From positions 384,001 to 448,000 of the forward strand of contig CAXVYR010000004.1 of the NCBI GenBank assembly GCA_963666975.2: 64,000 bases of DNA. The letters run 5' to 3'. The first letter of the stretch is position 1; each line of letters opens with the position of its first letter. This DNA comes from Terriglobia bacterium (GTDB taxonomy: Bacteria; Acidobacteriota; Terriglobia; 2-12-FULL-54-10). The notes under the pieces were generated by a model that was not told the DNA's origin, made no database searches, and worked only from the letters and a program-made list of their open reading frames with translations. Positions 4,297-52,047 of the stretch are shown piece after piece. Position numbers and translations under genes: made by a program.

Positions 4297-4600
4297 TCTA
4301 TTTCCTCCAATCTTCTAGGGAGGTTTCTCTCCCGCAAGCAGCTTTCCGGATTTCCTGCGATTTTAGCATGGAAACGAAACCAGAACTACAGACTACATTT
4401 GACACTGTCAAAAATATAGATGCATAAGGTGCCGTAAAGGTTTCCCCGCAGCGGACAATGGGAACAGACCGGGCCGGGCAGCTTCGTTCACGGTATCCGG
4501 CTTCTCCGGACTTCCGGCGACCTGGACTTACCGCAGCAGTCCATTGAAAACCTTGACCTTCCGTAACTACACCAGTATGATGAAATCTCTTGGTGTTTCT

Positions 4601-4846: not shown

Positions 4847-5819
4847 TCCGGAACAGCCCGACATGGCTGCCGGCGGCTCCCCCGCCCCAGAACCTGTTTC
4901 CGATCAAAACACATCCGACCCCGATCCCTCCCCAAGCATAAGGGACGCATCCTCTTCGGGCCTGGCCGTGGAAGAGGAAGATATCTACGACTACGACTAT
5001 GGAGGAAAACCTCCCTCTCCACCCCCTGGAGGAGAATCGGGAAACGGCGGCAACGAACCTCCGGAAAATGAACCTCCGGATATGGGCAAGATGTCCTTTT
5101 TGGACCACCTGGAGGAGTTGCGGCGGCGCATCTTTCACTCTCTTTTCGGCATTCTCGGCGGCTTCCTTGTCTGCTGGACCTTTTCGGATCAGTTATACGC
5201 CGGGCTTGCACTTCCGCTCACGCGGATTCTTCAGGAACTGAACCTGCCGGACAAGCTTGTCTATACGAATCCAACCGCACCGTTCAACCTATATATCAAG
5301 CTGGCCTTCCTGGCCGGCATTTTTGTTGCCTCCCCGTTTCTTCTCTATCAGGTATGGAAGTTCATTTCACCGGGGCTGTACCCCAAGGAGAAGCGTTACG
5401 CAATCCCTTTCGTCCTGTTTTGTTCCCTGCTGTTTATTTCGGGCGGCGCCTTTGCTTATATGGTCGCATTTCCGGCGGCGCTTCGTTTTCTGCTGAACTT
5501 CGCGAGCCAATTCCAGCCGTTCATCACCGTCGATGAATATTTCAAGCTTGCCACCACCATTATTCTGGGGATGGCGCTCATCTTTGAGATGCCGATCCTG
5601 ATTGTGTTTTTGACCCTGCTGCGGGTAATGACACCGCAATTCCTGCTGCGGAATTTCCGTTACGCAGTTCTGCTGATCTGTGTCCTGGCAGCCGTCATCA
5701 CGCCCACTCCCGACATTCTCACCATGTCGCTTTTCGCTGCTCCCCTGATCGCTCTCTACTTCCTGGGCATCGGCCTGTCCTATCTGGTTCTCTGGAACCG
5801 AAAACGGAGCGAAGATTAG
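4830..5819 (+). CDS. tatC: Twin-arginine translocase TatC with long acidic/Pro-rich N-terminal extension
   Basis: MSFLDHLEELRRRI, FISPGLYPKE, FEMP, AAVITPTPD; start uncertain, ATG 4830 overlaps the tatA end. Confidence 0.93.
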   Translation: MPPSSDPEQPDMAAGGSPAPEPVSDQNTSDPDPSPSIRDASSSGLAVEEEDIYDYDYGGKPPSPPPGGESGNGGNEPPENEPPDMGKMSFLDHLEELRRRIFHSLFGILGGFLVCWTFSDQLYAGLALPLTRILQELNLPDKLVYTNPTAPFNLYIKLAFLAGIFVASPFLLYQVWKFISPGLYPKEKRYAIPFVLFCSLLFISGGAFAYMVAFPAALRFLLNFASQFQPFITVDEYFKLATTIILGMALIFEMPILIVFLTLLRVMTPQFLLRNFRYAVLLICVLAAVITPTPDILTMSLFAAPLIALYFLGIGLSYLVLWNRKRSED

Positions 5820-10465: not shown

Positions 10466-11589
10466 GCTCTGTTTCGGTTGCTCCCTTGCAAAAGTTCTGC
10501 GTAAACGGCGGCTGTCCGGCTGGCCATTATATCAGTGGTGGCATGGGTCATCACGAACCTTCGTCCGGCGTCGGCCAGCCGCTGGCGCGTCCTCGCCGAG
10601 TCCCGAAGCAAGCGAATGGCGGGAGGCAGTTCGCTCTTCCAATCCTTGCCTGCCAGGAGCCCCTCCTCCATATGGCGCACGATCTCCGGTATGCCTCCCA
10701 CATTGCTGGCTACAACGGGCAGATTGTATGCCATAGCCAGCAGAATCGCCGAGCCTAACCCCTCGGATTTACTCAAGTACAAAAACATGTCCAGCGACCC
10801 CAGAAAGGCACTTAAGTCCTCGCCGAGCCGGACAATCTGAAAGCGTTTCTCCACGCCGCGCTTCCTGGCGTGTTCGAGAAGGACTTTTTCGGCAGCTTGC
10901 TGGTCCGCGTCCGACTCTGGAAGACCGAGCCCCGGAGTCCCAAGCCAAAGCTGCATTGTGGAAGGCAGATTCACCAGCAGGTCCACGCTATCCTGCAAAA
11001 GCTTCTCGGGAGCTATCGTCGCCAATGTTCCGATCAGAAAGGTTTGCTCCCCCACTCCAAAGCGGCGGCGCAGCTCGCTGCTATTCCCGGAACCCGCGGG
11101 CAAACGGGGAAGCTTCACCCCGTCCAGAACCACGTGAATCTTTTCTTCCGGCACGCTAGCCTGGAGAAGCTGCTGGCGGACATAATCCGAAACGGCGATA
11201 TAAGCGTCGGCGGCGCCGTACTTGAGACGGCTGAAAAACCCAATCGGATAGGCCACTCGCCGGGATACAACCAGACGGGGCCAGGACTTTTTGCTTCTGC
11301 CGATGCCTGCCAGCCACGCCAGCGAATGTCCGCGGGCATCATGCGCATGAAGCAGATCAAACCGGACGGCCTTCTGAGGGAGACCCCGAAGGTTCGCAAA
11401 AGACATGGCTTGCGGAGACAGTTCCGCAACCTCCAGCCCTGCTTTGCGAGTCCGCTCCGCCAGAGGGGAGCTGCTCGGGGCCAGCAGCAACTGTTCATGG
11501 CCGAGGTCCCGCAGTCCTTCCATCAGCCAGAAAAGTTGTTGCTGTCCACCGCGCCATCCTTTGCCGGTGTCCAGGTGCAGTATCTTCAT
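10462..11589 (-). CDS. Glycosyltransferase family 4
   Basis: WRGGQQQ, HAHD, SKSEGLGSAILLAMA, PVVASNVGGIPE. Confidence 0.9.
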   Translation of the reverse strand: MKILHLDTGKGWRGGQQQLFWLMEGLRDLGHEQLLLAPSSSPLAERTRKAGLEVAELSPQAMSFANLRGLPQKAVRFDLLHAHDARGHSLAWLAGIGRSKKSWPRLVVSRRVAYPIGFFSRLKYGAADAYIAVSDYVRQQLLQASVPEEKIHVVLDGVKLPRLPAGSGNSSELRRRFGVGEQTFLIGTLATIAPEKLLQDSVDLLVNLPSTMQLWLGTPGLGLPESDADQQAAEKVLLEHARKRGVEKRFQIVRLGEDLSAFLGSLDMFLYLSKSEGLGSAILLAMAYNLPVVASNVGGIPEIVRHMEEGLLAGKDWKSELPPAIRLLRDSARTRQRLADAGRRFVMTHATTDIMASRTAAVYAELLQGSNRNRA

Positions 11590-41807: not shown

Positions 41808-42944
41808 CTACTGCTTGAGCCGGAGCGCCTTGCGAGTGATGGTAGTAACCGGAAGCCGGCTCATCTGGCGCGGGGAAACCCAACGCTCCCGAGGCTCGAC
41901 GACCCGGCGATCCATCCGGGCCGCGTAGACAGCCACATGCAGTTTGTTGGATGTGATCGTGTGCTGTACGTGCCCGAGCAAGCTGCCCAGTCGAATTCCA
42001 TCGCGGGGCTCGGTTTTCCGATGGGCAGGAGAGTTTTTCCGGCTGTTCTCCTCCCACAGGGGCAACTCCCAGAACCCTCCCATCCATTTCGCGGTGCGCG
42101 CCCTGCGAACCAGTAACACTCGGCCCGCCGGGTCGAGCGCCAGAGCCGTTGTGAATCGGCGCGCCACGGGTTTGGACTTGCGCCTGACCGCCGGGTATCT
42201 CTCCACTTGATTTCGCCGAAAGGCCAAGCAATGGCTCCGCAGCGGACACTGTTGGCATCGTGGCTGCCTCGGCAGGCAGAGGGTCGCCCCCAATTCCATG
42301 AAGGCTTGGTTGCAGTCGCCGGGCCGCCGCCGGGACAAGAGCGCATCCGCCAAGTGCCTGCGAACTTGCTTGCCACGGGCAGTTTGAGGATCATCCGGCA
42401 ATGCGTACAAGCGCGCCAGAACCCTGGCAACATTGCCATCCAGGACCGGGAGCGGGACCCCGCAGGCGATGCTGAGCACGGCAGCAGCGGTATACTCGCC
42501 GACACCGGGCAACCGGAGCACGGCCTGGAGGTCCGTCGGAAACGAACCTCCGCATTCGCGCACAATCATCTGCGCCGCCTTCTGCAAGTTTCGCGCCCGC
42601 GAGTAGTAACCCAAACCGCTCCAGCACGCCAGCAAGCGTTGCTCGTCCGCTGCGGCCAATGCTTGCACATCCGGGAAAAGGCGGAGGAATCGCTCATAGA
42701 ATGGAACAACCGCCTGCACGCGGGTCTGCTGGAGCATGATCTCGGAAACCCAAATCCGGTACGGGTCGAGCGTCTTTCTCCAAGGAAGGCTCCGCTTGTG
42801 AAGGTCATACCACTTGAGAAGCTTTTGCCGAATTTGACTCTCTGCCTTGCTTTTCCCGACGGAGCTTGCCAAGCTTCTTGTCGAGTTTTGTGTTTTTGGG
42901 TTTGGCGTTTTTTGGTTTTGCGTTGGTTTCGTAACGCGGCTCAT
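41808..42944 (-). CDS. mutY: A/G-specific adenine glycosylase
   Basis: WVSEIMLQQT, WSGLGYYSRARNL, LPGVGEYT, DGNVARV, C-x6-C-x2-C-x5-C 4Fe-4S motif. Confidence 0.95.
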   Translation of the reverse strand: MSRVTKPTQNQKTPNPKTQNSTRSLASSVGKSKAESQIRQKLLKWYDLHKRSLPWRKTLDPYRIWVSEIMLQQTRVQAVVPFYERFLRLFPDVQALAAADEQRLLACWSGLGYYSRARNLQKAAQMIVRECGGSFPTDLQAVLRLPGVGEYTAAAVLSIACGVPLPVLDGNVARVLARLYALPDDPQTARGKQVRRHLADALLSRRRPGDCNQAFMELGATLCLPRQPRCQQCPLRSHCLAFRRNQVERYPAVRRKSKPVARRFTTALALDPAGRVLLVRRARTAKWMGGFWELPLWEENSRKNSPAHRKTEPRDGIRLGSLLGHVQHTITSNKLHVAVYAARMDRRVVEPRERWVSPRQMSRLPVTTITRKALRLKQ

Positions 42945-42974: not shown

Positions 42975-44384
42975 TTACAGACTTTTCAGCCAGCGCGCCA
43001 GCGGCGCAGTGGGAAGGCCGGGCTGCATAAAGCGTTGCGGGTTTCCCGCCGCCTCGGTGACTAATTCTGCGGCTCGGTATCCGCTGCGAACCGCGCCCTC
43101 CATGGTCGGAGGCCACCCGGTCGCCGTCCAGTCTCCCGCCAGGAAAAAATTCTCAAAGGGAGTCCTCGCGCCCAGCCGAAGCGGGTCCAGCCCCGGCTGG
43201 AGCGATACGGTGGCTTTTGCTTCCTTCACAACAATAGACTTCACCAGTTCCGCCTTCCGGCTGAGAGGAAATAGCTCGTGGAGTTCCCGGAGCGCCATCG
43301 ACAGAATTTCATCCTGCCGCATCGTCAGCAAACCCCGCGATGCGCTGACCACCAACTGGATGTATTGAGGTGTTGCAGAACCCTGTTGACTCTCTCCCTG
43401 TTTTCTTCCAATTCGGGAGCGGTTGAAGACCCACTGAATGGTACGGCCAAGCACCGTAACATGGTCGAGTTCCATGACAGGCCGGTCAAACCACAGATGG
43501 ATTCCCGTGATCGGCGACCACTCTGGCTTTCGCAGCTTGTCCAGTTCCGGCCACAACTCCGGCCACTGCTCCGGGAGTTTTTCCGGAAACAGGCTGGCCA
43601 GGGCGTCGGGCGGAAGCGCGCTGATGTAATAGTCCGCCCTCTTCTCTCCGCCGTTTTGCAGATGGAGGCAGACGACCCGTCCCGCCTTCGATTGCACCCC
43701 GGCTACGTGCGTCCGAAGCTGCAAGGAACATGTTTCACTGAGAATCTTGCTGGAATAAAGCTCGCTCAAGGGAACCACCGGGACTCCCATGCGATATCCG
43801 CGGCGGTTGCTGAGAAAAGCCTCCACAAACACATGGAATGCGTAGCGGCTGGAGAGGTGTTCCAGGTCCTCGTTCAGGGCGCTGGTCAAAACCACGCGCC
43901 AAAAATTTTCAATGGCCGCGCTGGTCTGCCTTTGTTGCTTTAGCCAATCCATCATGGGCTGGCCGTCCTGAGGCTCGCGGTCCCGGAGAACGGCGAGCAT
44001 GGCCCGGGCGATGCCCCAGCGGTCCCGCCACCCGAGATCACGAAAGCGCAACAGCGACGGGAGCAAGTGAAATGGGGCCGGAAGTCCCGATGCGCTTATC
44101 GAGGAAAGCCCGCCGGGACCCAGGAAGAGGAAGCTGTCATAAAAGCGGAATTTCTCAGCCGCTCCGATGCGCCGGAAAAAATCCAGCAGGTTGGTGCAGC
44201 AGCCGAGCAGCACGTGCTGGCAGTTATCGACCGGCTCGATCCCGCCCGCCGGGATAAAAGACGAAGCGCGGCCTCCCAGCACCGGACGCTTCTCCAGAAT
44301 CTCCACCTGAAACTGAGCTTCCGCCAAGCAGGCAGCGGCAGCGAGCCCCGCCAGCCCGCCTCCTAGAATGATAACCCTTGGAAT
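42975..44384 (-). CDS. hpnE: Hydroxysqualene dehydroxylase HpnE (FAD-dependent)
   Basis: RVIILGGGLAGLAAA lies upstream of the track start; LGGRASS, DNCQHVLLGC, AGDWTATGWPPTMEGAVRSG; apparent ATT start at 44384. Confidence 0.9.
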   Translation of the reverse strand: MPRVIILGGGLAGLAAAACLAEAQFQVEILEKRPVLGGRASSFIPAGGIEPVDNCQHVLLGCCTNLLDFFRRIGAAEKFRFYDSFLFLGPGGLSSISASGLPAPFHLLPSLLRFRDLGWRDRWGIARAMLAVLRDREPQDGQPMMDWLKQQRQTSAAIENFWRVVLTSALNEDLEHLSSRYAFHVFVEAFLSNRRGYRMGVPVVPLSELYSSKILSETCSLQLRTHVAGVQSKAGRVVCLHLQNGGEKRADYYISALPPDALASLFPEKLPEQWPELWPELDKLRKPEWSPITGIHLWFDRPVMELDHVTVLGRTIQWVFNRSRIGRKQGESQQGSATPQYIQLVVSASRGLLTMRQDEILSMALRELHELFPLSRKAELVKSIVVKEAKATVSLQPGLDPLRLGARTPFENFFLAGDWTATGWPPTMEGAVRSGYRAAELVTEAAGNPQRFMQPGLPTAPLARWLKSL

Positions 44385-45271
44385 TGTTGCCTCTCCAGCT
44401 CGCGCCCTGCCTTATGACGGAGCCACATCCGGACGCCCCGAAGCACCACCCCTATTTTCTCCATTTCCGTCAGCGCAGCATCGCGCGCGAACACGTTGCA
44501 TTCATTCCGCTCGATGCTTCTCAGGATGCCGCGGTAGATGGCAATCAAGGCCCACAGGGCGGGCCGGCTCTCCGGCTCCACCATCTCGATCAAAGGATAG
44601 GTCCTTTCATAGAAATTTTGGGCGCGGGCGATCTGGAATCGCATCAAACCGAAGAACTCCCGGTTGTAGACGCCCGCTGTCAATTGTTCCGGCGAATACT
44701 CGAAGCGTTCCAGGTCCTCCAACGGAAGATAGATCCGGCCGCTGTTGGCGTCCTCGCGGATATCCCGCAGAATATTCGTCAACTGAAAAGCGATGCCGCA
44801 TTCCTCAGCCAGTTTTTTCGCCGCCGGGTCCCGGAACCCCAAAATATGCAGAGAAGCCAGGCCCACCACCGACGCCACCCGGTAGCAGTATGGATAGAGA
44901 TCGTCAAACGTCCGGTAGGAGCAGATGGAAAGGTCCATCTCGGCGCCGGTAATCAGGTCGTAAAAAAACTCCGGAGGGATGGAGTAGCGCCGGACGGCGT
45001 CGTGAAACGCGGGGAGAATCAAACTGTCGCCGTAGTCGCTGCCCAGCGCTCGTTCCAGCGCCTGCCGCCATTCCTGCAAGCGGGCTGCCTTGTCGGAAAC
45101 CGCGTCCGCGCCATCGGCCACGTCGTCACAGTAACGCATGAAGGCATACACGGCGCAGAATGCTTCGTGGCGCGGCTTGGGGAGCAGCAGGAAGCCGTAA
45201 TAAAAATTCCGCGCCCGCTGCCGGGTCAGCCGCCGGCAATAATCGGAGGAAGCTGCGAGGAGGGTTGGCAT
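44363..45271 (-). CDS. hpnD: Presqualene diphosphate synthase HpnD
   Basis: NFYYGF, YAFMRYCDD, YCYRVASVVG, FQLTNILRD, GRIYLP; start set at ATG 45271. Confidence 0.9.
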   Translation of the reverse strand: MPTLLAASSDYCRRLTRQRARNFYYGFLLLPKPRHEAFCAVYAFMRYCDDVADGADAVSDKAARLQEWRQALERALGSDYGDSLILPAFHDAVRRYSIPPEFFYDLITGAEMDLSICSYRTFDDLYPYCYRVASVVGLASLHILGFRDPAAKKLAEECGIAFQLTNILRDIREDANSGRIYLPLEDLERFEYSPEQLTAGVYNREFFGLMRFQIARAQNFYERTYPLIEMVEPESRPALWALIAIYRGILRSIERNECNVFARDAALTEMEKIGVVLRGVRMWLRHKAGRELERQQFQGLSF

Positions 45272-45272
45272 T

Positions 45273-46214
45273 TCACCTGCCCTTCCGGCGGGAAAACATT
45301 TGACCGGCCAGAACCGATACCAGCAACAGAGCCTTTTCCCCCTGGCCGAGCACGGGACGCCGGGCCAGTACATTGTAGTTTTGCCGTTCGATGCGTTTCA
45401 ATAGTTCCATTCCCGCGCGGCTGAACAGCTCCAAGTCCACCGCCAGCCGGACGCCTACCTGCGAGGCCAGCGGCAGGCCTTCCCTAAACAACTTCCATGT
45501 GCGCTCGACTTGCTCCTTCAGCAGGGCAACAAAATTCCCGTTATACCGAGAATGCGCCAGATCGTCCTCCGAGTACCCATGCCGGGCCATGTCGTCCAGC
45601 GGCAGGTATATCCGCCCGATGCGGAAATCCCGCCTGACATCCTGCCAGAAGTTGGCCAGTTGCAACGCCGTGCAAGTGCAGTCGGAAAGCCTCTTCCGCT
45701 CCGGGTCGCGATATCCGCACAGGTGGAGGACAAGCTGGCCCACCGGATTGGCCGAATAGCGACAGTACCCCAGAAGCTGCTGAAAATTCCGGTAGCGCGT
45801 CTTTGTTTGGTCCTGCCGGAAGGCGGTGATCAAATCCAGAAACGGTTGCTGGGGAATCTCGAATTGCTCGATTGTCTCCCGCAAGGCTACAAACACCGGA
45901 TGCCGGACGCGGCCCCGGTAACAATCCTGCAACTCCTCTTCCCACCGGTCCAGAAGAAACAGCGCACGGGCCCGGTCGCCGGTCTCGTCTCCCAAGTCGT
46001 CGGCCCAGCGGCAGTAGGCATACACCGGATAGAAGTGGACCCGCAGCTCGCGGGGAAGCAGCAGGCTGGCGATGGGAAAGTTTTCGTAGTGACCCCGGAC
46101 CAACTGTTCACAATACTGACGGGCTTGGCCGAGCGAAGGCGGCGAAGCAGGAAGTTCGCCCGTCCAGTCTGCGGGCTGGGAGGCGATGGCGGGGAAGGAC
46201 AGCTCGGCTCTCAT
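45273..46214 (-). CDS. hpnC: Squalene synthase HpnC
   Basis: HYENFPIAS, YAYCRWADDLGDE, YCRYSANPVG, LQLANFWQDV. Confidence 0.92.
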   Translation of the reverse strand: MRAELSFPAIASQPADWTGELPASPPSLGQARQYCEQLVRGHYENFPIASLLLPRELRVHFYPVYAYCRWADDLGDETGDRARALFLLDRWEEELQDCYRGRVRHPVFVALRETIEQFEIPQQPFLDLITAFRQDQTKTRYRNFQQLLGYCRYSANPVGQLVLHLCGYRDPERKRLSDCTCTALQLANFWQDVRRDFRIGRIYLPLDDMARHGYSEDDLAHSRYNGNFVALLKEQVERTWKLFREGLPLASQVGVRLAVDLELFSRAGMELLKRIERQNYNVLARRPVLGQGEKALLLVSVLAGQMFSRRKGR

Positions 46215-46252
46215 TTCTCAAGAAACGGACGACCGGGAACTCCGGGCCGTCC

Positions 46253-47293
46253 TCAGGGAAGGATCGCCGTTTTCAGGTCGCCGTTGCGGTTTGCCATGCG
46301 CCGCAGCAGCTCGGGGAGACCGCTCAAGGGCGCCTCGCCGGTAATGAAGTCCCGGCTGCGTATCTCGCCGCGGCTGATCGATTCCAGGGCTTTCCGAATA
46401 TATTTTGGGGTGTGATGAAAGCTGGCCTTCAAAGTGATTTCCGAGTAATGCAGCAGGGACGTGTCGAGCTGGACGGTGCTGCCGCTGGGACAACCCCCGA
46501 AGAAATTTACCGTTCCGCCCCGGTGAACCATATTGGCAGCCCACTCCCAAGTCTGTGGCGTGCCGACGGCTTCCACAGCAACGTCAGCGCCTCCGTTGCG
46601 GGTTAATTTGCGAACCTCCGCCACCACATCCCCGGCGAGGGTGGCATCCACAATCTCGTCCGCCCCCATACGCTGGGCCGCCACAAGCTGGCTGCGTCTT
46701 TTTCCTACCGCAACCACCCTGGCGCCTTTCAGCTTTGCCAGACGGATGAACATCAATCCGACGGGCCCCATGCCGATAATGGCCACAACATCGTTGCGTT
46801 GCAGTCCGGTTTCTTCCAGCCCGCGCAGCACGCAGGCCAGGGGCTCCACTAGGGCGGCGTCGACAAAATCGATGTGGCCCGGAATTTCCAGCAAATTCTG
46901 CCGGACAATGGGACCCGGGATGCGAATGTACTCCGCGTACGCTCCATTGTTAAACAGCAGCCGATCGCAAAGGTTGGCGCGGTCCCGTAGGCAATAACGG
47001 CATTCCCCGCACGGAGCGGAGTTGGCGGCAACCACCCGCATCCCTGTCCGAATATTCCGGACCTCCGGGCCGACCTCTTCCACTACACCCGCCAACTCAT
47101 GTCCGAAAATCGCCGGGGGGGTGATCATGCGGGCATGATATCCCTGACGATATACTTTGAGGTCTGTTCCACAGGTCAGGGCAGCCTTGATCCGAATCAG
47201 CACTTCGTCGGGACTCAAGGTGGGAACGGGCACCTGTTCGACTTTCAGGTCTTCTTTGCCGTACAGAACGGCGGCTGTCATTCTCCTCGTCAC
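46253..47293 (-). CDS. Zinc-binding alcohol dehydrogenase (hopanoid-cluster associated)
   Basis: CGTD, GHE, CxxCxxC, VEPLACV, GMGPVG. Confidence 0.9.
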   Translation of the reverse strand: MTRRMTAAVLYGKEDLKVEQVPVPTLSPDEVLIRIKAALTCGTDLKVYRQGYHARMITPPAIFGHELAGVVEEVGPEVRNIRTGMRVVAANSAPCGECRYCLRDRANLCDRLLFNNGAYAEYIRIPGPIVRQNLLEIPGHIDFVDAALVEPLACVLRGLEETGLQRNDVVAIIGMGPVGLMFIRLAKLKGARVVAVGKRRSQLVAAQRMGADEIVDATLAGDVVAEVRKLTRNGGADVAVEAVGTPQTWEWAANMVHRGGTVNFFGGCPSGSTVQLDTSLLHYSEITLKASFHHTPKYIRKALESISRGEIRSRDFITGEAPLSGLPELLRRMANRNGDLKTAILP

Positions 47294-47383
47294 TGTTATT
47301 CTTACCTCACAGGGCCCCGCAGAATCAGCGGGGTTGATTTAGCTCCTGAATAGACTATGCACCGCCCAGCGGAGAGATTCGGT

Positions 47384-47647
47384 TTATCCTGAACCCAACG
47401 CCGCGGCCAGCCCGCCGGCCGCCCGGCGGGAACTCCCTGCGAGCCTCCATAAATCTTTCACTCCACTGAGGCTCCGGATTCCCTCCCGGACAATATTCCA
47501 CCCAGATAACTTTTCATGCTCTCTCTGACAGCGCTCAAAGTCAATGGAAATACTCTGTTCCACCGAATCTGTAATGGACTTGATAGCGCAAAAGGGTACT
47601 CCCCCCAGGAGGGCGGCACGGGCCACTCCTGCTGATTCCATATCCAC
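47384..47647 (-). pseudogene. hpnG: C-terminal remnant of nucleoside phosphorylase-like hpnG
   Basis: VDMESAGVARAA...VPFCAIKSITD, the PNP/MTAN DMES motif; N-terminal half missing. Confidence 0.75.
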
Positions 47648-47725
47648 CCAGTTGAGACCGGTGCCGAGATAAGCGGGCATCTTACGGTTGAGAAAATCCA
47701 AAATAATCTTCCCCGTCGACGTCGG
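47642..47725 (-). pseudogene. hpnA: Internal remnant of hopanoid-associated epimerase hpnA
   Basis: PTSTGKIILDFLNRKMPAYLGTGLNWVD, matching the HpnA PTPTG..I.DFL...MPAY.DTGLN.VDV motif. Confidence 0.82.
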
Positions 47726-47903
47726 ATTCCAGCGAGATATCTGCTTCGAGTTCTCCCACCCAGAAACCTTCCGGATACTGCAAGGAAAGCAGATCGTCGA
47801 GAGACGCTGCAATGGATTGGGGGAAGGGGGATAACCCCGGTTTCACGGGGCAAGAAGCGCTGATCTTTCCATCCGAACACTTGAGCGCCGTCGTGATGCT
47901 CAT
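47721..47903 (-). pseudogene. shc: N-terminal remnant of squalene-hopene cyclase
   Basis: ATG overlaps the ispH stop; SIAASLDDLLSLQYPEGFWVGELEADISLESD contains the first QW repeat and GELEAD motif, then similarity stops after ~60 aa. Confidence 0.85.
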
Positions 47904-48925
47904 AGGTTGGATGGCATCCTCGTGTTTTCCGTTTCCAGGGAGACAAGCTCCGGCGGCAAAGCGAACCGCACGTCTTCCGACACCGGCTCGACCTCCCGCA
48001 CCTTACCGAAACCCTGGCTTTTCAGAAAATCGACCACCTTCGCGACCAGGAACTCCGGCGCGGAGGCCCCGGCGGTGACGCCTACTGTCTGGACCTTTTC
48101 GAGCCACTGGATATCAATGGCCGTCTCATCTTCAATCAAATAAGAAGGCAACCCGGCGTTGGCAGCCACTTCCACCAAACGGTTGGAATTGGAACTATTG
48201 GAAGAGCCGACCACCAGCAGCAGACTACAAAGGGAAGCGACGGCTTTGACTGCTACCTGACGGTTCTCGGTGGCGTAACAGATGTCCTGAGCCGGGGGGC
48301 CCACAATGCCCGGATACTTTGCCTGCAACGCCGCAATGATGCCCTTGGTTTCCTCCAGGCTCAGCGTCGTCTGGGTGAGGTAAGCCACCCGTGAGGGGTC
48401 CGGCACGTTCAGGCTTTGGACTTCCTCCTCGGAACTGATCAGCCATGTCTGCCCCAGGGCTTCGCCCAGCGTTCCGATTACTTCATCGTGATCTTTGTGT
48501 CCGATCAAAACGATGGAGTATCCCTCGCGTGCAAAGCGAACAGCTTCCAGGTGCACTTTGGTAACCAGCGGACAGGTGGCGTCGATCACTTGCAGGCGCC
48601 GCTCGGCCGCCACGCGCCGAACATCGGGCGAAACGCCATGAGCGCTGAAGATGATCCGGGCTCCCTCCGGCACCTCCTCGATTGCATCGAGGAAAATTGC
48701 CCCCTTGCGGGAAAGGTCCACAACCACATGATGGTTATGGACGATCTCTTTCCGCACATAGATGGGCGCGCCGAAAGTTTCCAGGGCGATATTCACAATA
48801 TCAATCGCGCGGACCACGCCCGCGCAAAAACCCCTGGGCTTCAGCAGAACCACCGTCTTGGCAGCCGGCAAAGCGGCTGGTCCGGAGGTAGTCGCAGGAG
48901 AATCTTGGTCCAGCAAAGGATTCAA
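47900..48925 (-). CDS. ispH: 4-hydroxy-3-methylbut-2-enyl diphosphate reductase
   Basis: PRGFCAGVVRA, IVHN, SAHG, DATCPLVTKVH, QTTLS, ICYATENRQ, SSNSNRL, TAGASAP. Confidence 0.96.
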   Translation of the reverse strand: MNPLLDQDSPATTSGPAALPAAKTVVLLKPRGFCAGVVRAIDIVNIALETFGAPIYVRKEIVHNHHVVVDLSRKGAIFLDAIEEVPEGARIIFSAHGVSPDVRRVAAERRLQVIDATCPLVTKVHLEAVRFAREGYSIVLIGHKDHDEVIGTLGEALGQTWLISSEEEVQSLNVPDPSRVAYLTQTTLSLEETKGIIAALQAKYPGIVGPPAQDICYATENRQVAVKAVASLCSLLLVVGSSNSSNSNRLVEVAANAGLPSYLIEDETAIDIQWLEKVQTVGVTAGASAPEFLVAKVVDFLKSQGFGKVREVEPVSEDVRFALPPELVSLETENTRMPSNL

Positions 48926-48976
48926 AGGAAAGTCCCGTTCTTGTTGGAGTCGTGCTTTCAGGAAAGGAAACCAGCG

Positions 48977-50560
48977 CTATTTCTTCCGGGCAATAACTTG
49001 TTTCGCATTTTCCGACAAAGCAGCCGCCTGGGGCAGCAACTCAATCGCTTTTAGGATTTGGGTGTCTGCGCCCGCTTCCAACTTGTAAGCTTCATCCATA
49101 CCGAAAACAGACAGATACAGCTCTAGTTTAATGTTGTGCCGAATGTAGTCCAAATGCTCGGCAAAATCCGGCTCATCAAAGTCGATTTGCTGTTCCTGTA
49201 AAAACGCCCGGAATCGCTCCAGCACGGCATCATCGGCCTCAAAGCTCCGGGAGATCGACCGATTTTCGGCCAGGTACCGTTTTGCAAAATTGAAGAAGGC
49301 GTATCCCCGGGCGAGCAACTGCTGAAAGCGGTTGAGTTTGGATTCCGGGATTTCAAAGTCCGGAGTGATGCCGCCTCCGCCGTAAACAACCCGGCCGGCG
49401 TCGGTCAATTTCACCTCGGCGTTCGCGTGGCTATCGTCTTTATTGTAATAATATTCGTACAGCGATATGCCCGAGTATTCGCGCTGGATCAAGCGGCCGC
49501 TCGGCGTATAGTATTTCGCCGTCGTCAGCGCCAAGCCGGTATTTTCGCTGAGCGGATAGACGGTTTGGACGAGCCCTTTTCCAAAGCTGGCCTCTCCCAC
49601 TATCAATCCCCGGTCGTGGTCTTGAACGGCTCCGGCTACGATTTCGGCCGCGCTGGCAGAGAAGCGGTTGAGCAACACAACCAGCGGGAAGCGCTCCCCC
49701 CGGTTCCCGCGGGCTGCCGTGTACCGCTTTTCGCGGGAAGAGCGGCCCTTATGAGAAACAATCAGTTGCCCGCGGTCGAGAAACAGGCCGGCGACGTTCA
49801 CCCCTTCCTGCAGAAGTCCGCCGGGATTGTTGCGCAAATCCAGGACCAGCCCTTCCCAGGTGCTGGAATTGAGCTCCCGCATTTTCGCTCTCAATTCCCT
49901 GCTGGTGGTTTCATTGAAACTGGAAATCCGAATGTAGCCGATTTTCGGAGCGATCAGAAAGGCATGTTCGATGCTCAGCCGGGGAATCTCATCCCTCACA
50001 ATGACAAATTGCAAGGGCTCCAGATCCCCTTCGCGCGAAACCCGGATGCGAACCGTTGTCCCCCTGGGCCCCTTCAGCAGTTCCGCGACTTCTGTGGTGT
50101 TTAAGTTTTCTGTGGTCGTGTCGTCGACCTGGACAATGATGTCGCCGGGACGCAAACCTGCGCGGTAGGCCGGTGAGCCGACAAACGGAGCCAGCACGAT
50201 GGTCTTCCCGTTCCGCGGTGTCACCGTCATCCCGACGCCGTAGTAACGTCCTTTCTGCTCTTCGCGCAGCAGCTTGAAGCTCCTGGGATCGAAAAAGTTG
50301 GAGTGCGGATCCAAACTGTGGAGCATGCCGGGAATCGCTCCGCCATAGATGACTTTCTCGGCGTCAACGGGAGCTGCGTAATTTTCCTCTACGGCGCGGA
50401 GTACCTTGGAAATGCTCTCGAGACTTTCCTCGACTCCGGACCCGGCAGCAGCGCTCTCGGCGGTGACTCGAGCGCCGTAGAGCCCGCCGACTAAAGCGCA
50501 AATCAAAATAACGCTGCAAAAAACAAAAAAGCGGCGCACTTCAGAGCTCATTCGTTTCAT
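48977..50560 (-). CDS. S41 family carboxy-terminal processing protease
   Basis: LDPHS, PDZ domain, LDLRNNPGG, SASAAEI, FGKGLVQ, GGITPD. Confidence 0.94.
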   Translation of the reverse strand: MKRMSSEVRRFFVFCSVILICALVGGLYGARVTAESAAAGSGVEESLESISKVLRAVEENYAAPVDAEKVIYGGAIPGMLHSLDPHSNFFDPRSFKLLREEQKGRYYGVGMTVTPRNGKTIVLAPFVGSPAYRAGLRPGDIIVQVDDTTTENLNTTEVAELLKGPRGTTVRIRVSREGDLEPLQFVIVRDEIPRLSIEHAFLIAPKIGYIRISSFNETTSRELRAKMRELNSSTWEGLVLDLRNNPGGLLQEGVNVAGLFLDRGQLIVSHKGRSSREKRYTAARGNRGERFPLVVLLNRFSASAAEIVAGAVQDHDRGLIVGEASFGKGLVQTVYPLSENTGLALTTAKYYTPSGRLIQREYSGISLYEYYYNKDDSHANAEVKLTDAGRVVYGGGGITPDFEIPESKLNRFQQLLARGYAFFNFAKRYLAENRSISRSFEADDAVLERFRAFLQEQQIDFDEPDFAEHLDYIRHNIKLELYLSVFGMDEAYKLEAGADTQILKAIELLPQAAALSENAKQVIARKK

Positions 50561-50722: not shown

Positions 50723-50798
<76 letters not shown>

Positions 50799-50802
50799 TT
50801 GG

Positions 50803-50878
50803 GGCGCGGTACCCAAGTGGTTAAGGGAGAGGTCTGCAAAACCTTTATGCGGCGGTTCGAATCCGCCCCGCGCCTCCA
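50803..50878 (+). tRNA. tRNA-Cys(GCA)
   Basis: GGCGCGGTACCCAAGTGGTTAAGG...CTGCAAA...GGTTCGAATCC...CGCGCCTCCA. Confidence 0.97.
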
Positions 50879-50952
50879 ATTATTCAATGAGTTAGCCTCA
50901 CCTCTGGGAATCCATTAATCGCCAATGTAGCGGAAACTGTAGCGGGTGCCGG

Positions 50953-52047
50953 TCACTGCATGGACACCTGGGCGTCTTCGCCCTCATATTCGGCAATCTG
51001 TTTAGCGGCGGTGAATTCTTCTAATCGCCGCATTTCTGCGAATTGATGCTCCTCTGTCGGGTGAACGTATCGGAGCACCATCTGGATGCGCGAGTGCCCG
51101 AGCATTGCCGCTAAGGTCACAAGATCCATACCCGACATGGCCGCTCTGGTGGCCCAGGTGTGCCTCAAATCATACAGCCGGAAATAATTCACCTTGCTCT
51201 CCGTGAGTGCCAGCGTGTGTGCGTTATTCATTTTCAGGATGGGCCGGTTGGGATCGGTCCGCCCGGGAAAAGCGTAAGGGCTGCCATTGGCGGCGCTCAA
51301 ACGCTTTTTGAGAACTTCCCGAGCAGTCCTGTTCAGCCGAATCTTCCGTTTCGCCGCTTTGGTTTTTCCGTAAGGGTTGAAGAGGTAACTCTCCTTGAGG
51401 TGCACGTTCTCAACCCGGATTCGGTAAACTTCGTCCGGGCGCATACCCGTTTCCAGCATGATGACAGCCACGTCCTTGAGCGGTTGAGAGGCATTCGCAA
51501 GATATTTCCGCTGCTCTTTATAATTCAGCACGCGGGTTTGTTCGTTGTCTTCCTCTAGGAAATTTACGCGGCTGACCGGATTCTTAAGAACCACGTCGCC
51601 CTTTATTGCAAAGTTGAAAAGGGCCTTTAGGCAAGCCAATTCCCTGTTCACCGTGGCAGGCCGTAGTTTCTTTCCGGTTAACTGGCCGGTTTGTTCTCCT
51701 CGCTCTGCCTTGAACTTTTCCACATCTTCCGGAGTAATCCTATCGAGAGGCGCGTCTTTGAAATGCCGCAGGAGAGCCTTGCTGCTCGTGACGTAACGAA
51801 CATGAGTGCGCGGGTGCGCCCTGTGCTCCGTCCCAGACCACGCAAGGAAAGATTTCATCGCGCCTCGGAAGAAGGGAATGGATTTTGGCTCCATGATCCC
51901 CACCTCTCCCTTCGCAAGTGCGGTGCGACAGGCAGCTTCTATCTGCCGGGCCACTCGCGGATTGCCTTGCTTGGTGCTTTTCTGGACGTGCAGGCCGTTG
52001 AAAACGAAATGATACCAGTACGTCTTGCCTCGTTTGAAAATTGCCAT
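50953..52047 (-). CDS. Tyrosine recombinase/integrase
   Basis: N-terminal arm FKRGKTYWY, ATVNREL, ETGMR, YDLRHT, LGHS, MVLRY. Confidence 0.95.
   Translation of the reverse strand: MAIFKRGKTYWYHFVFNGLHVQKSTKQGNPRVARQIEAACRTALAKGEVGIMEPKSIPFFRGAMKSFLAWSGTEHRAHPRTHVRYVTSSKALLRHFKDAPLDRITPEDVEKFKAERGEQTGQLTGKKLRPATVNRELACLKALFNFAIKGDVVLKNPVSRVNFLEEDNEQTRVLNYKEQRKYLANASQPLKDVAVIMLETGMRPDEVYRIRVENVHLKESYLFNPYGKTKAAKRKIRLNRTAREVLKKRLSAANGSPYAFPGRTDPNRPILKMNNAHTLALTESKVNYFRLYDLRHTWATRAAMSGMDLVTLAAMLGHSRIQMVLRYVHPTEEHQFAEMRRLEEFTAAKQIAEYEGEDAQVSMQ

Follow-up and report, generated by a model that had tools for sequence, protein, structure and literature searches.

Three gene remnants and their neighbours

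The window, a stretch of 64,000 nucleotides from a Terriglobia bacterium, carries on its minus strand a 520-bp region (47384-47903) that lies between an intact ispH gene and an intact gene of a zinc-type alcohol dehydrogenase (adh) and that contains remnants of three genes of hopanoid biosynthesis, shc, hpnA and hpnG (Table 1). The locus was compared with the rest of the window's own genome (G000; 4.23 Mb, 4 contigs, 98.88% complete) and with three related genomes: G001, another species of this genus (10 contigs, 95% complete, 81-85% identity); G002, a metagenome-assembled genome (MAG) of the same genus (92-94% DNA identity, 83% complete, 430 contigs); and G003, a complete genome from a neighbouring genus (single contig, 68-78% identity to the window). 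By its IspH the window's genome falls in Acidobacteriota, the best named relatives being MAGs at 76% and 72% identity. IspH itself shows 93% amino-acid identity to its counterpart in G002, with a dN/dS of 0.16.

Table 1. Features of the hopanoid locus. Positions are those of the window; C332 and C188 are contigs of G002.
Feature	Position	Strand	Basis
ispH (4-hydroxy-3-methylbut-2-enyl diphosphate reductase), intact, first gene of ispH-shc-hpnH block	47900..48925	-	NF002189 443.5 bits, TIGR00216 320 bits, full length
shc remnant, 5' end only, corresponds to codons 1 to about 64 of G002 shc	47726..47903	-	TIGR01507; 92% DNA identity to G002 up to 47720
73-codon ORF	47903..47682	-	shc remnant match
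142-codon ORF, overlapping, other frame	47812..47384	-	HpnA and HpnG matches
Junction 1, CCGACG, single kept copy of direct repeat in shc and hpnA of G002	47720..47725	-	ungapped three-way comparison
hpnA remnant, about 31-32 internal codons, residues 177-207 of 333 in G002	47649..47719	-	TIGR03466; 91.5% identity (47732-47639) to G002 C332 10147-10240
Junction 2, GGTGGAT, single kept copy of 7-bp direct repeat in hpnA and hpnG of G002	47642..47648	-	three-way comparison
hpnG remnant (phosphorylase/nucleosidase), C-terminal 85 codons and stop, about 40%	47384..47641	-	TIGR03468; 94% DNA identity to G002 C188 from position 50
adh (zinc-type alcohol dehydrogenase), intact	46253..47293	-	Pfam ADH_N and ADH_zinc_N
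hpnC (squalene synthase HpnC), intact	45273..46214	-	TIGR03464 341.6 bits, cut-off 250
hpnD (presqualene diphosphate synthase), full length, open	44363..45373	-	TIGR03465 245.4 bits, positions 2-264 of 267, slightly below cut-off 278.6
hpnE (hydroxysqualene dehydroxylase), open	42975..44366 (listed ORF 44327..42975)	-	TIGR03467 391.3 bits, cut-off 283
mutY	42944..41808	-	downstream of hpnE

The first-pass annotation, made from the letters alone, had proposed that sequences of squalene-hopene cyclase (SHC), HpnA and HpnG are hidden here behind two meaningless entries in the list of open reading frames. Both the hidden position and the assignments were borne out by three separate partial matches to NCBIfam profiles, and the peptides and the two motifs it had read, CCGAC (47725-47721) and GTGGAT (47647-47642, minus strand), lie where it had placed them. 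The 73-codon ORF matched the cyclase profile TIGR01507 over positions 15-51 of 640 (E 4.4e-6, 25.4 bits against a cut-off of 431.1). The 142-codon ORF matched two profiles: TIGR03466 for HpnA, a hopanoid-associated NAD-dependent epimerase/dehydratase-like protein, over positions 177-208 of 327 (E 4.7e-9, 35.6 bits against 367.65), and TIGR03468 for HpnG over positions 125-210 of 212 (E 9.6e-13, 48.2 bits against 187.1). These scores are far under the cut-offs because only fragments are present; no full-length SHC, HpnA or HpnG family match over the curated NCBIfam cut-off was found at the locus, and the N-terminal nucleotide-binding fold of HpnA is missing. Pfam gave weak support for two of the assignments, the cyclase N-domain and the phosphorylase fold. 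The genes on either side were assigned securely by NCBIfam.

The first approximately 60 amino acids of the region had been taken as SHC. They do belong to a cyclase remnant, but only about 35 residues are read in the ancestral frame. In the alignment to G002 two indels mark the shc stub, a loss of 10 bp after 47897 and a C added to the run at 47823-47819. Because of them the 73-codon ORF does not enter the ancestral frame until about 47822, which is confirmed by tblastn, where the match is split over two frames. Similarity to the shc gene of G002 ends at about codon 64 (position 6716 in L020), and the catalytic central region of the cyclase is absent. In cyclases this region carries the acidic protonating motif DxDD. 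In one strain, represented by sequencing run X8, an extra CC stands behind 47600 in the hpnG stub, a case of strain-level decay of the relic. A terminator scan of 47200-48000 gave no sites.

Downstream of the relic, all three genes of the predicted HpnCDE squalene pathway are full length and open, without stops. The longest ORF for hpnD overlaps hpnC by about 100 bases, and its start is likely the ATG at 45271, near which the family match begins. The profile match of hpnE starts only at position 18, and this was considered as a further lesion of the cluster. We rejected that reading since the GGGLAGL FAD-binding motif (44328-44366, minus strand) is in frame, immediately behind the stop codon of hpnD and ahead of any ATG, GTG or TTG, and since the start is built alike in G001 and G002; a non-canonical start codon or translational coupling may account for it, rather than damage. 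The adh gene is 97% identical in G002, survives in G001 only as some 49 C-terminal codons and is missing from G003; on gene order, its insertion between hpnG and hpnC is specific to this genus. Its best NCBIfam matches were scyllo-inosose and threonine dehydrogenases, all far under the cut-off. Elsewhere in the window, genes for tRNA-Gly (50723-50797) and tRNA-Cys (50803-50878) are followed by one for a tyrosine recombinase/integrase (50953..52047, minus strand), and the stretch 50723-52047 may be the edge of an integrated element.

The intact cluster and the two junctions

The order ispH-shc-hpnH-hpnA-hpnG is complete in both G002 and G003. In G002, contig C332 carries ispH, shc (671 aa, 735 bits), hpnH (444 bits), hpnA (452 bits) and hpnG as far as codon 128, while contig C188 begins within hpnG and continues with adh, hpnC, hpnD and hpnE. 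In G003 the order ispH-shc-hpnH-hpnA-hpnG-hpnC-hpnD-hpnE is found on one contig, without adh. SHC scored over the cut-off in 19 of the 41 genomes searched (G000 and 40 relatives). Within the same family it did so in 10 of the 13 other genomes, one more holding pieces at contig ends and two, G001 and G008, having no match. The ancestral operon would have been ispH-shc-hpnH-hpnA-hpnG-(adh)-hpnC-hpnD-hpnE, and the 520 bases at 47384-47903 would be the wreck of its central part. The first-pass annotation had described the three segments as standing in their usual cluster order; the stubs do keep that order, but in the relatives hpnH stands between shc and hpnA.

The hpnG gene of G002 is split at about codon 128. 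From about position 11043 (L020) the next 1.5 kb of contig C332 are unrelated DNA with an SgcJ/EcaC-family gene in it, and in C188 (L113, 1-110), which begins within hpnG, the frame changes near a run of G. The split may be an insertion plus a frameshift, a third hit on the cluster in the genus, or an artefact of MAG assembly; with G002 being a MAG of 430 contigs, an assembly effect may account for it.

When the window was aligned to G002 with BLAST, the similarity fell into three blocks, in which window positions 49100-47720 correspond to C332 5328-6716, 47732-47639 to C332 10147-10240, and 47648-45200 to C188 50-2503. The first and second blocks have 13 bases in common and the second and third have 10, and these bases are the repeats found on both sides. 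The motifs CCGAC and GTGGAT named in the first-pass annotation are present at the junctions, but the true repeats are longer, namely CCGACGCC (8 bp, in G002) and GGTGGAT (7 bp). The repeat of junction 1 is exact over its 8 bp in G002 and agrees at 14 of 15 positions when the flank is included, the source sequences being CTGGAATCCGACGCC in shc and CTGGAAGCCGACGCC in hpnA. The window now reads CCGACGT at this point, so that no more than 6 bp of the repeat can still be seen in it. The frame switch that had been read at CCGAC and the continuation through GTGGAT were both confirmed: junction 1 shifts the reading frame, whereas junction 2 fuses the HpnA and HpnG stubs in one frame, by chance. The three-way comparison detected no foreign, filler or mobile-element bases at either junction.

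Alignment to the intact clusters also upheld the proposal of two deletions removing several kb. Measured on G002 the first is 3,443 bp long, and on G003 it is 3,546 bp. Since hpnG of G002 is split over two contigs, the size of the second (about 0.85 kb) rests on G003, which gives 851 bp, and on a composite of G002 and G001, which gives approximately 842 bp. For breakpoint pairs drawn at random in the G002 reference (n = 300,000) the mean microhomology was 0.72 bp, and the fraction with at least 7 bp was 0.00069; at this probability per junction, two such junctions are not a matter of chance.

We propose that deletion 1, of 3.4 kb, took shc from about codon 64, the whole of hpnH, and hpnA through about codon 176, and that deletion 2, of about 0.85 kb, took hpnA from about codon 208 and hpnG through about codon 135. 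Each would have occurred between two copies of a short direct repeat, one of which stays. The anatomy of the junctions points to slipped mispairing in replication or microhomology-mediated end joining as the likely route, and the small indels in the stubs would have gathered after inactivation. The absence of hpnH before the alcohol dehydrogenase gene, which the first-pass annotation had also observed, is explained by deletion 1, since in the relatives hpnH lies between shc and hpnA. We give a probability of about 0.9 to the reading that 47384-47903 is a deletional relic of the centre of a hopanoid operon, formed by two direct-repeat deletions and consisting of three non-functional stubs, and that the loss in the sister species was a separate one.

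The deleted form in other assemblies and alternative readings

Half or more of the words sampled from 46900-48400 were present in 13 of the 21 sequencing runs listed, and the 20 runs with the stretch or a part of it came from nine studies. A run labelled as a sponge metagenome contained 0.25 of the sampled words and two other runs 0.06-0.07. In three runs from three studies (X1, X4 and X8) a single contig of about 8.2 kb was unbroken over 46200-49000, in three cases out of three. The contig of X1 showed no differences from the window, that of X4 showed 4 SNPs as tabulated (5 when counted in the spanning piece), and that of X8 had the CC insertion. All three are assembled contigs whose library kind is unrecorded; the window itself may derive from one of them, the other two being independent assemblies. 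They show that the deleted form is present, and a rare intact allele in the populations would be compatible with them. The deletions are a property of the DNA and not of a single assembly.

Misassembly had been named at the outset as the outcome that would undo the two-deletion reading, and it was checked with these independent contigs from three studies, which span both junctions. An artefact of this kind, in which the cluster collapsed at short repeats while the true genome keeps an intact shc-hpnH-hpnA-hpnG, could draw on the 7-8 bp repeats at both junctions and on the window being known from assembled sequence only. However, repeats of 7-8 bp are far under the word length of any assembler, both junctions occur in the separately assembled contigs of all three runs (one with letters of its own and one with an indel of its own), and no spare shc, hpnH or hpnG is found elsewhere in the four contigs of the genome. 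We consider such an artefact extremely improbable.

The same junctions could also have been produced in one step. Replication could have switched template twice within one complex event, each time at a microhomology (by fork stalling and template switching, or by microhomology-mediated break-induced replication), and the hpnA segment would then be a 94-bp island copied between the two jumps; the island is indeed very short (47732-47639 including both repeats, with about 71 bp unique) and has a microhomology junction on each side. Also in favour of this account, an allele with only one of the junctions was not found in G001-G003 or in X1, X4 and X8, although intermediates were sought in just four related genomes and three runs, and two scans of metagenome contigs were unhelpful. 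In these scans the exact 26-nt pattern of the hpnA stub gave no stretches, and a degenerate hpnG pattern gave one match, L112 (3283 bases). L112 was considered as an intermediate allele and rejected: it holds a 3' part of hpnG, 97% identical to G002, amid unrelated high-GC DNA and Ns, and is probably chimeric. Nothing observed speaks positively for a single event, and two independent deletions are to be expected just as much, since an operon already killed by the first is no longer shielded by selection from the second. We keep the single event as a possible but clearly less favoured account of how the two junctions arose.

RNA run X14 contained near-identical pieces at 46422-46622, 46841-46993, 47252-47492 and 48153-48403. 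None of the X14 pieces crosses either junction, so nothing follows from them on transcription of the stubs. In comparisons with G001 and G002, dN/dS was 0.11-0.18 for hpnC, 0.15-0.16 for hpnD and 0.17 for hpnE. For ispH together with a neighbouring protease gene it was 0.13-0.19, and for the dead stubs, with few sites, 0.05-0.19. The ratio was rejected as a test of present constraint on hpnC, hpnD and hpnE, since the dead stubs are equally low and the values of the three genes cannot prove such constraint. It follows from the low dN/dS of the stubs that the deletions are recent in comparison with the divergence from G002 (dS about 0.2).

These data bear on a further reading, that the 142-codon ORF, which fuses HpnA and HpnG in frame, encodes a novel small protein whose function is kept by selection. 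Its ORF is open, its HpnG part has a dN/dS of 0.18-0.19 against the relatives, and one contig of the RNA library covers 47252-47492. Nevertheless, positions 1-124 of the 212 in the HpnG profile are missing and HpnA is down to 32 positions. The low dN/dS is what a recent deletion is expected to leave, and it rests on about 20 substitutions. In addition, strain X8 has a 2-bp insertion inside the ORF, the listed TTG start at 47812 sits in out-of-frame shc sequence, and the RNA contig is no proof of a transcript of the ORF because such libraries may contain DNA. A functional chimera is in our judgement very unlikely. The relic is real, and it is ordinary deletional gene loss.

Loss in the sister species, hopanoid capacity and known systems

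No cyclase match was found in the G001 genome. The locus of this sister species (L031, C7:455000-464000; about 5240-5290 and 4401-4544) consists of ispH, about 125 bp of the 5' end of shc, a full-length hpnG (228 codons), an adh remnant and hpnC, and its shc stub joins directly to the region just upstream of hpnG. This junction is at another place than both junctions of the window, and the difference indicates that the two species lost shc-hpnH-hpnA separately. A breakpoint common to both had been considered, since the G001 match begins exactly at junction 2, and was rejected; the match begins there because G001 keeps the whole of hpnG and the window does not. From the structure of its locus, G001 is read as having lost shc-hpnH-hpnA by a single deletion of its own. 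The relic in the window is somewhat more interesting because a sister species has separately lost the same genes.

The window's genome was searched for copies that might replace the lost genes. Across its four contigs there was no other cyclase match, only the stub (22.4 bits), and no match to HpnH (TIGR03470) over the cut-off of 225.05 bits, the best of six matches reaching 50.8 bits and representing generic radical-SAM paralogues. A tblastn search of the whole genome with the proteins of G002 and G001 found shc and hpnG as stubs only. In the same search the best hpnH matches were radical-SAM paralogues with at most 26% identity to HpnH of G002, and the best other copy of hpnA was a 33%-identical paralogue. 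This gene content predicts that the window's organism cannot cyclise squalene or build extended hopanoids. The HpnN transporter had no match over the cut-off in any of G000-G003, including the two genomes with shc, so its absence carries no information on the loss. A route from squalene to carotenoids was considered and rejected, as no CrtI/CrtN-type desaturase scored over the cut-off in the same four genomes.

In both sister species shc-hpnH-hpnA were cut separately, and hpnC, hpnD and hpnE are open and conserved like housekeeping genes. One could take this to mean that hopanoid loss in the genus is adaptive and recurrent rather than drift, with squalene, or an unknown cyclase-independent product of it, being useful in the membrane and hopanoids being dispensable or harmful in the habitat; we regard this interpretation as doubtful. 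Hopanoids serve as bacterial biomarkers, and genome surveys usually score the pathway by any match. Here a lineage in a hopanoid-making acidobacterial family has just lost the cyclase and kept the genes of squalene synthesis, which is a warning that matches to hpnC, hpnD and hpnE, or partial matches to shc, are no basis for inferring hopanoid production. The locus also provides a base-resolved example of microhomology deletions dismantling an operon, and a natural test of squalene's own role in bacteria without a cyclase.

The classical scar of a deletion between short direct repeats has intact flanks, one retained copy of the repeat and no filler, and it arises from replication slippage or microhomology-mediated end joining. 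The relic shares the repeat at the breakpoints, the single kept copy and the lack of inserted bases; in the present case the mechanism is read from the scar only.

For Acidobacteria of subdivisions 1 and 3, passages of Sinninghe Damsté et al. (2017, Front Microbiol 8:968, PMC5462960) describe three clusters, namely ispH together with shc and hpnH, hpnA together with hpnG, and hpnC-hpnD-hpnE. According to the same passages, all three are concatenated in Terracidiphilus gabretensis and some acidobacterial hopanoid clusters "have lost genes". The genes and their order are the same in our material, and G002 and G003 show the concatenated arrangement. In contrast to the clusters described there, the middle of the window's cluster is reduced to three stubs, and a zinc alcohol dehydrogenase gene stands between hpnG and hpnC in the window's genus; a remnant-bearing deletion of shc does not appear in these passages of PMC5462960. 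The papers listed by literature searches dealt in general with acidobacterial hopanoid genes and with deletions in bacterial pseudogenes; none among them treated a loss of shc, either in Acidobacteria or in Acidobacteriota associated with sponges.

The relic also resembles deletional pseudogenes and gene remnants of other bacterial genomes, the field of a 2018 study (Patterns of Nucleotide Deletion and Insertion Inferred from Bacterial Pseudogenes, Genome Biol Evol, PMC6054270), in that an inactivated pathway is being erased by deletions and its remains carry small indels. What sets it apart is that both breakpoints of multi-gene deletions are kept in one relic and an intact reference from the same genus exists, and with these two features the events can be reconstructed to the base.
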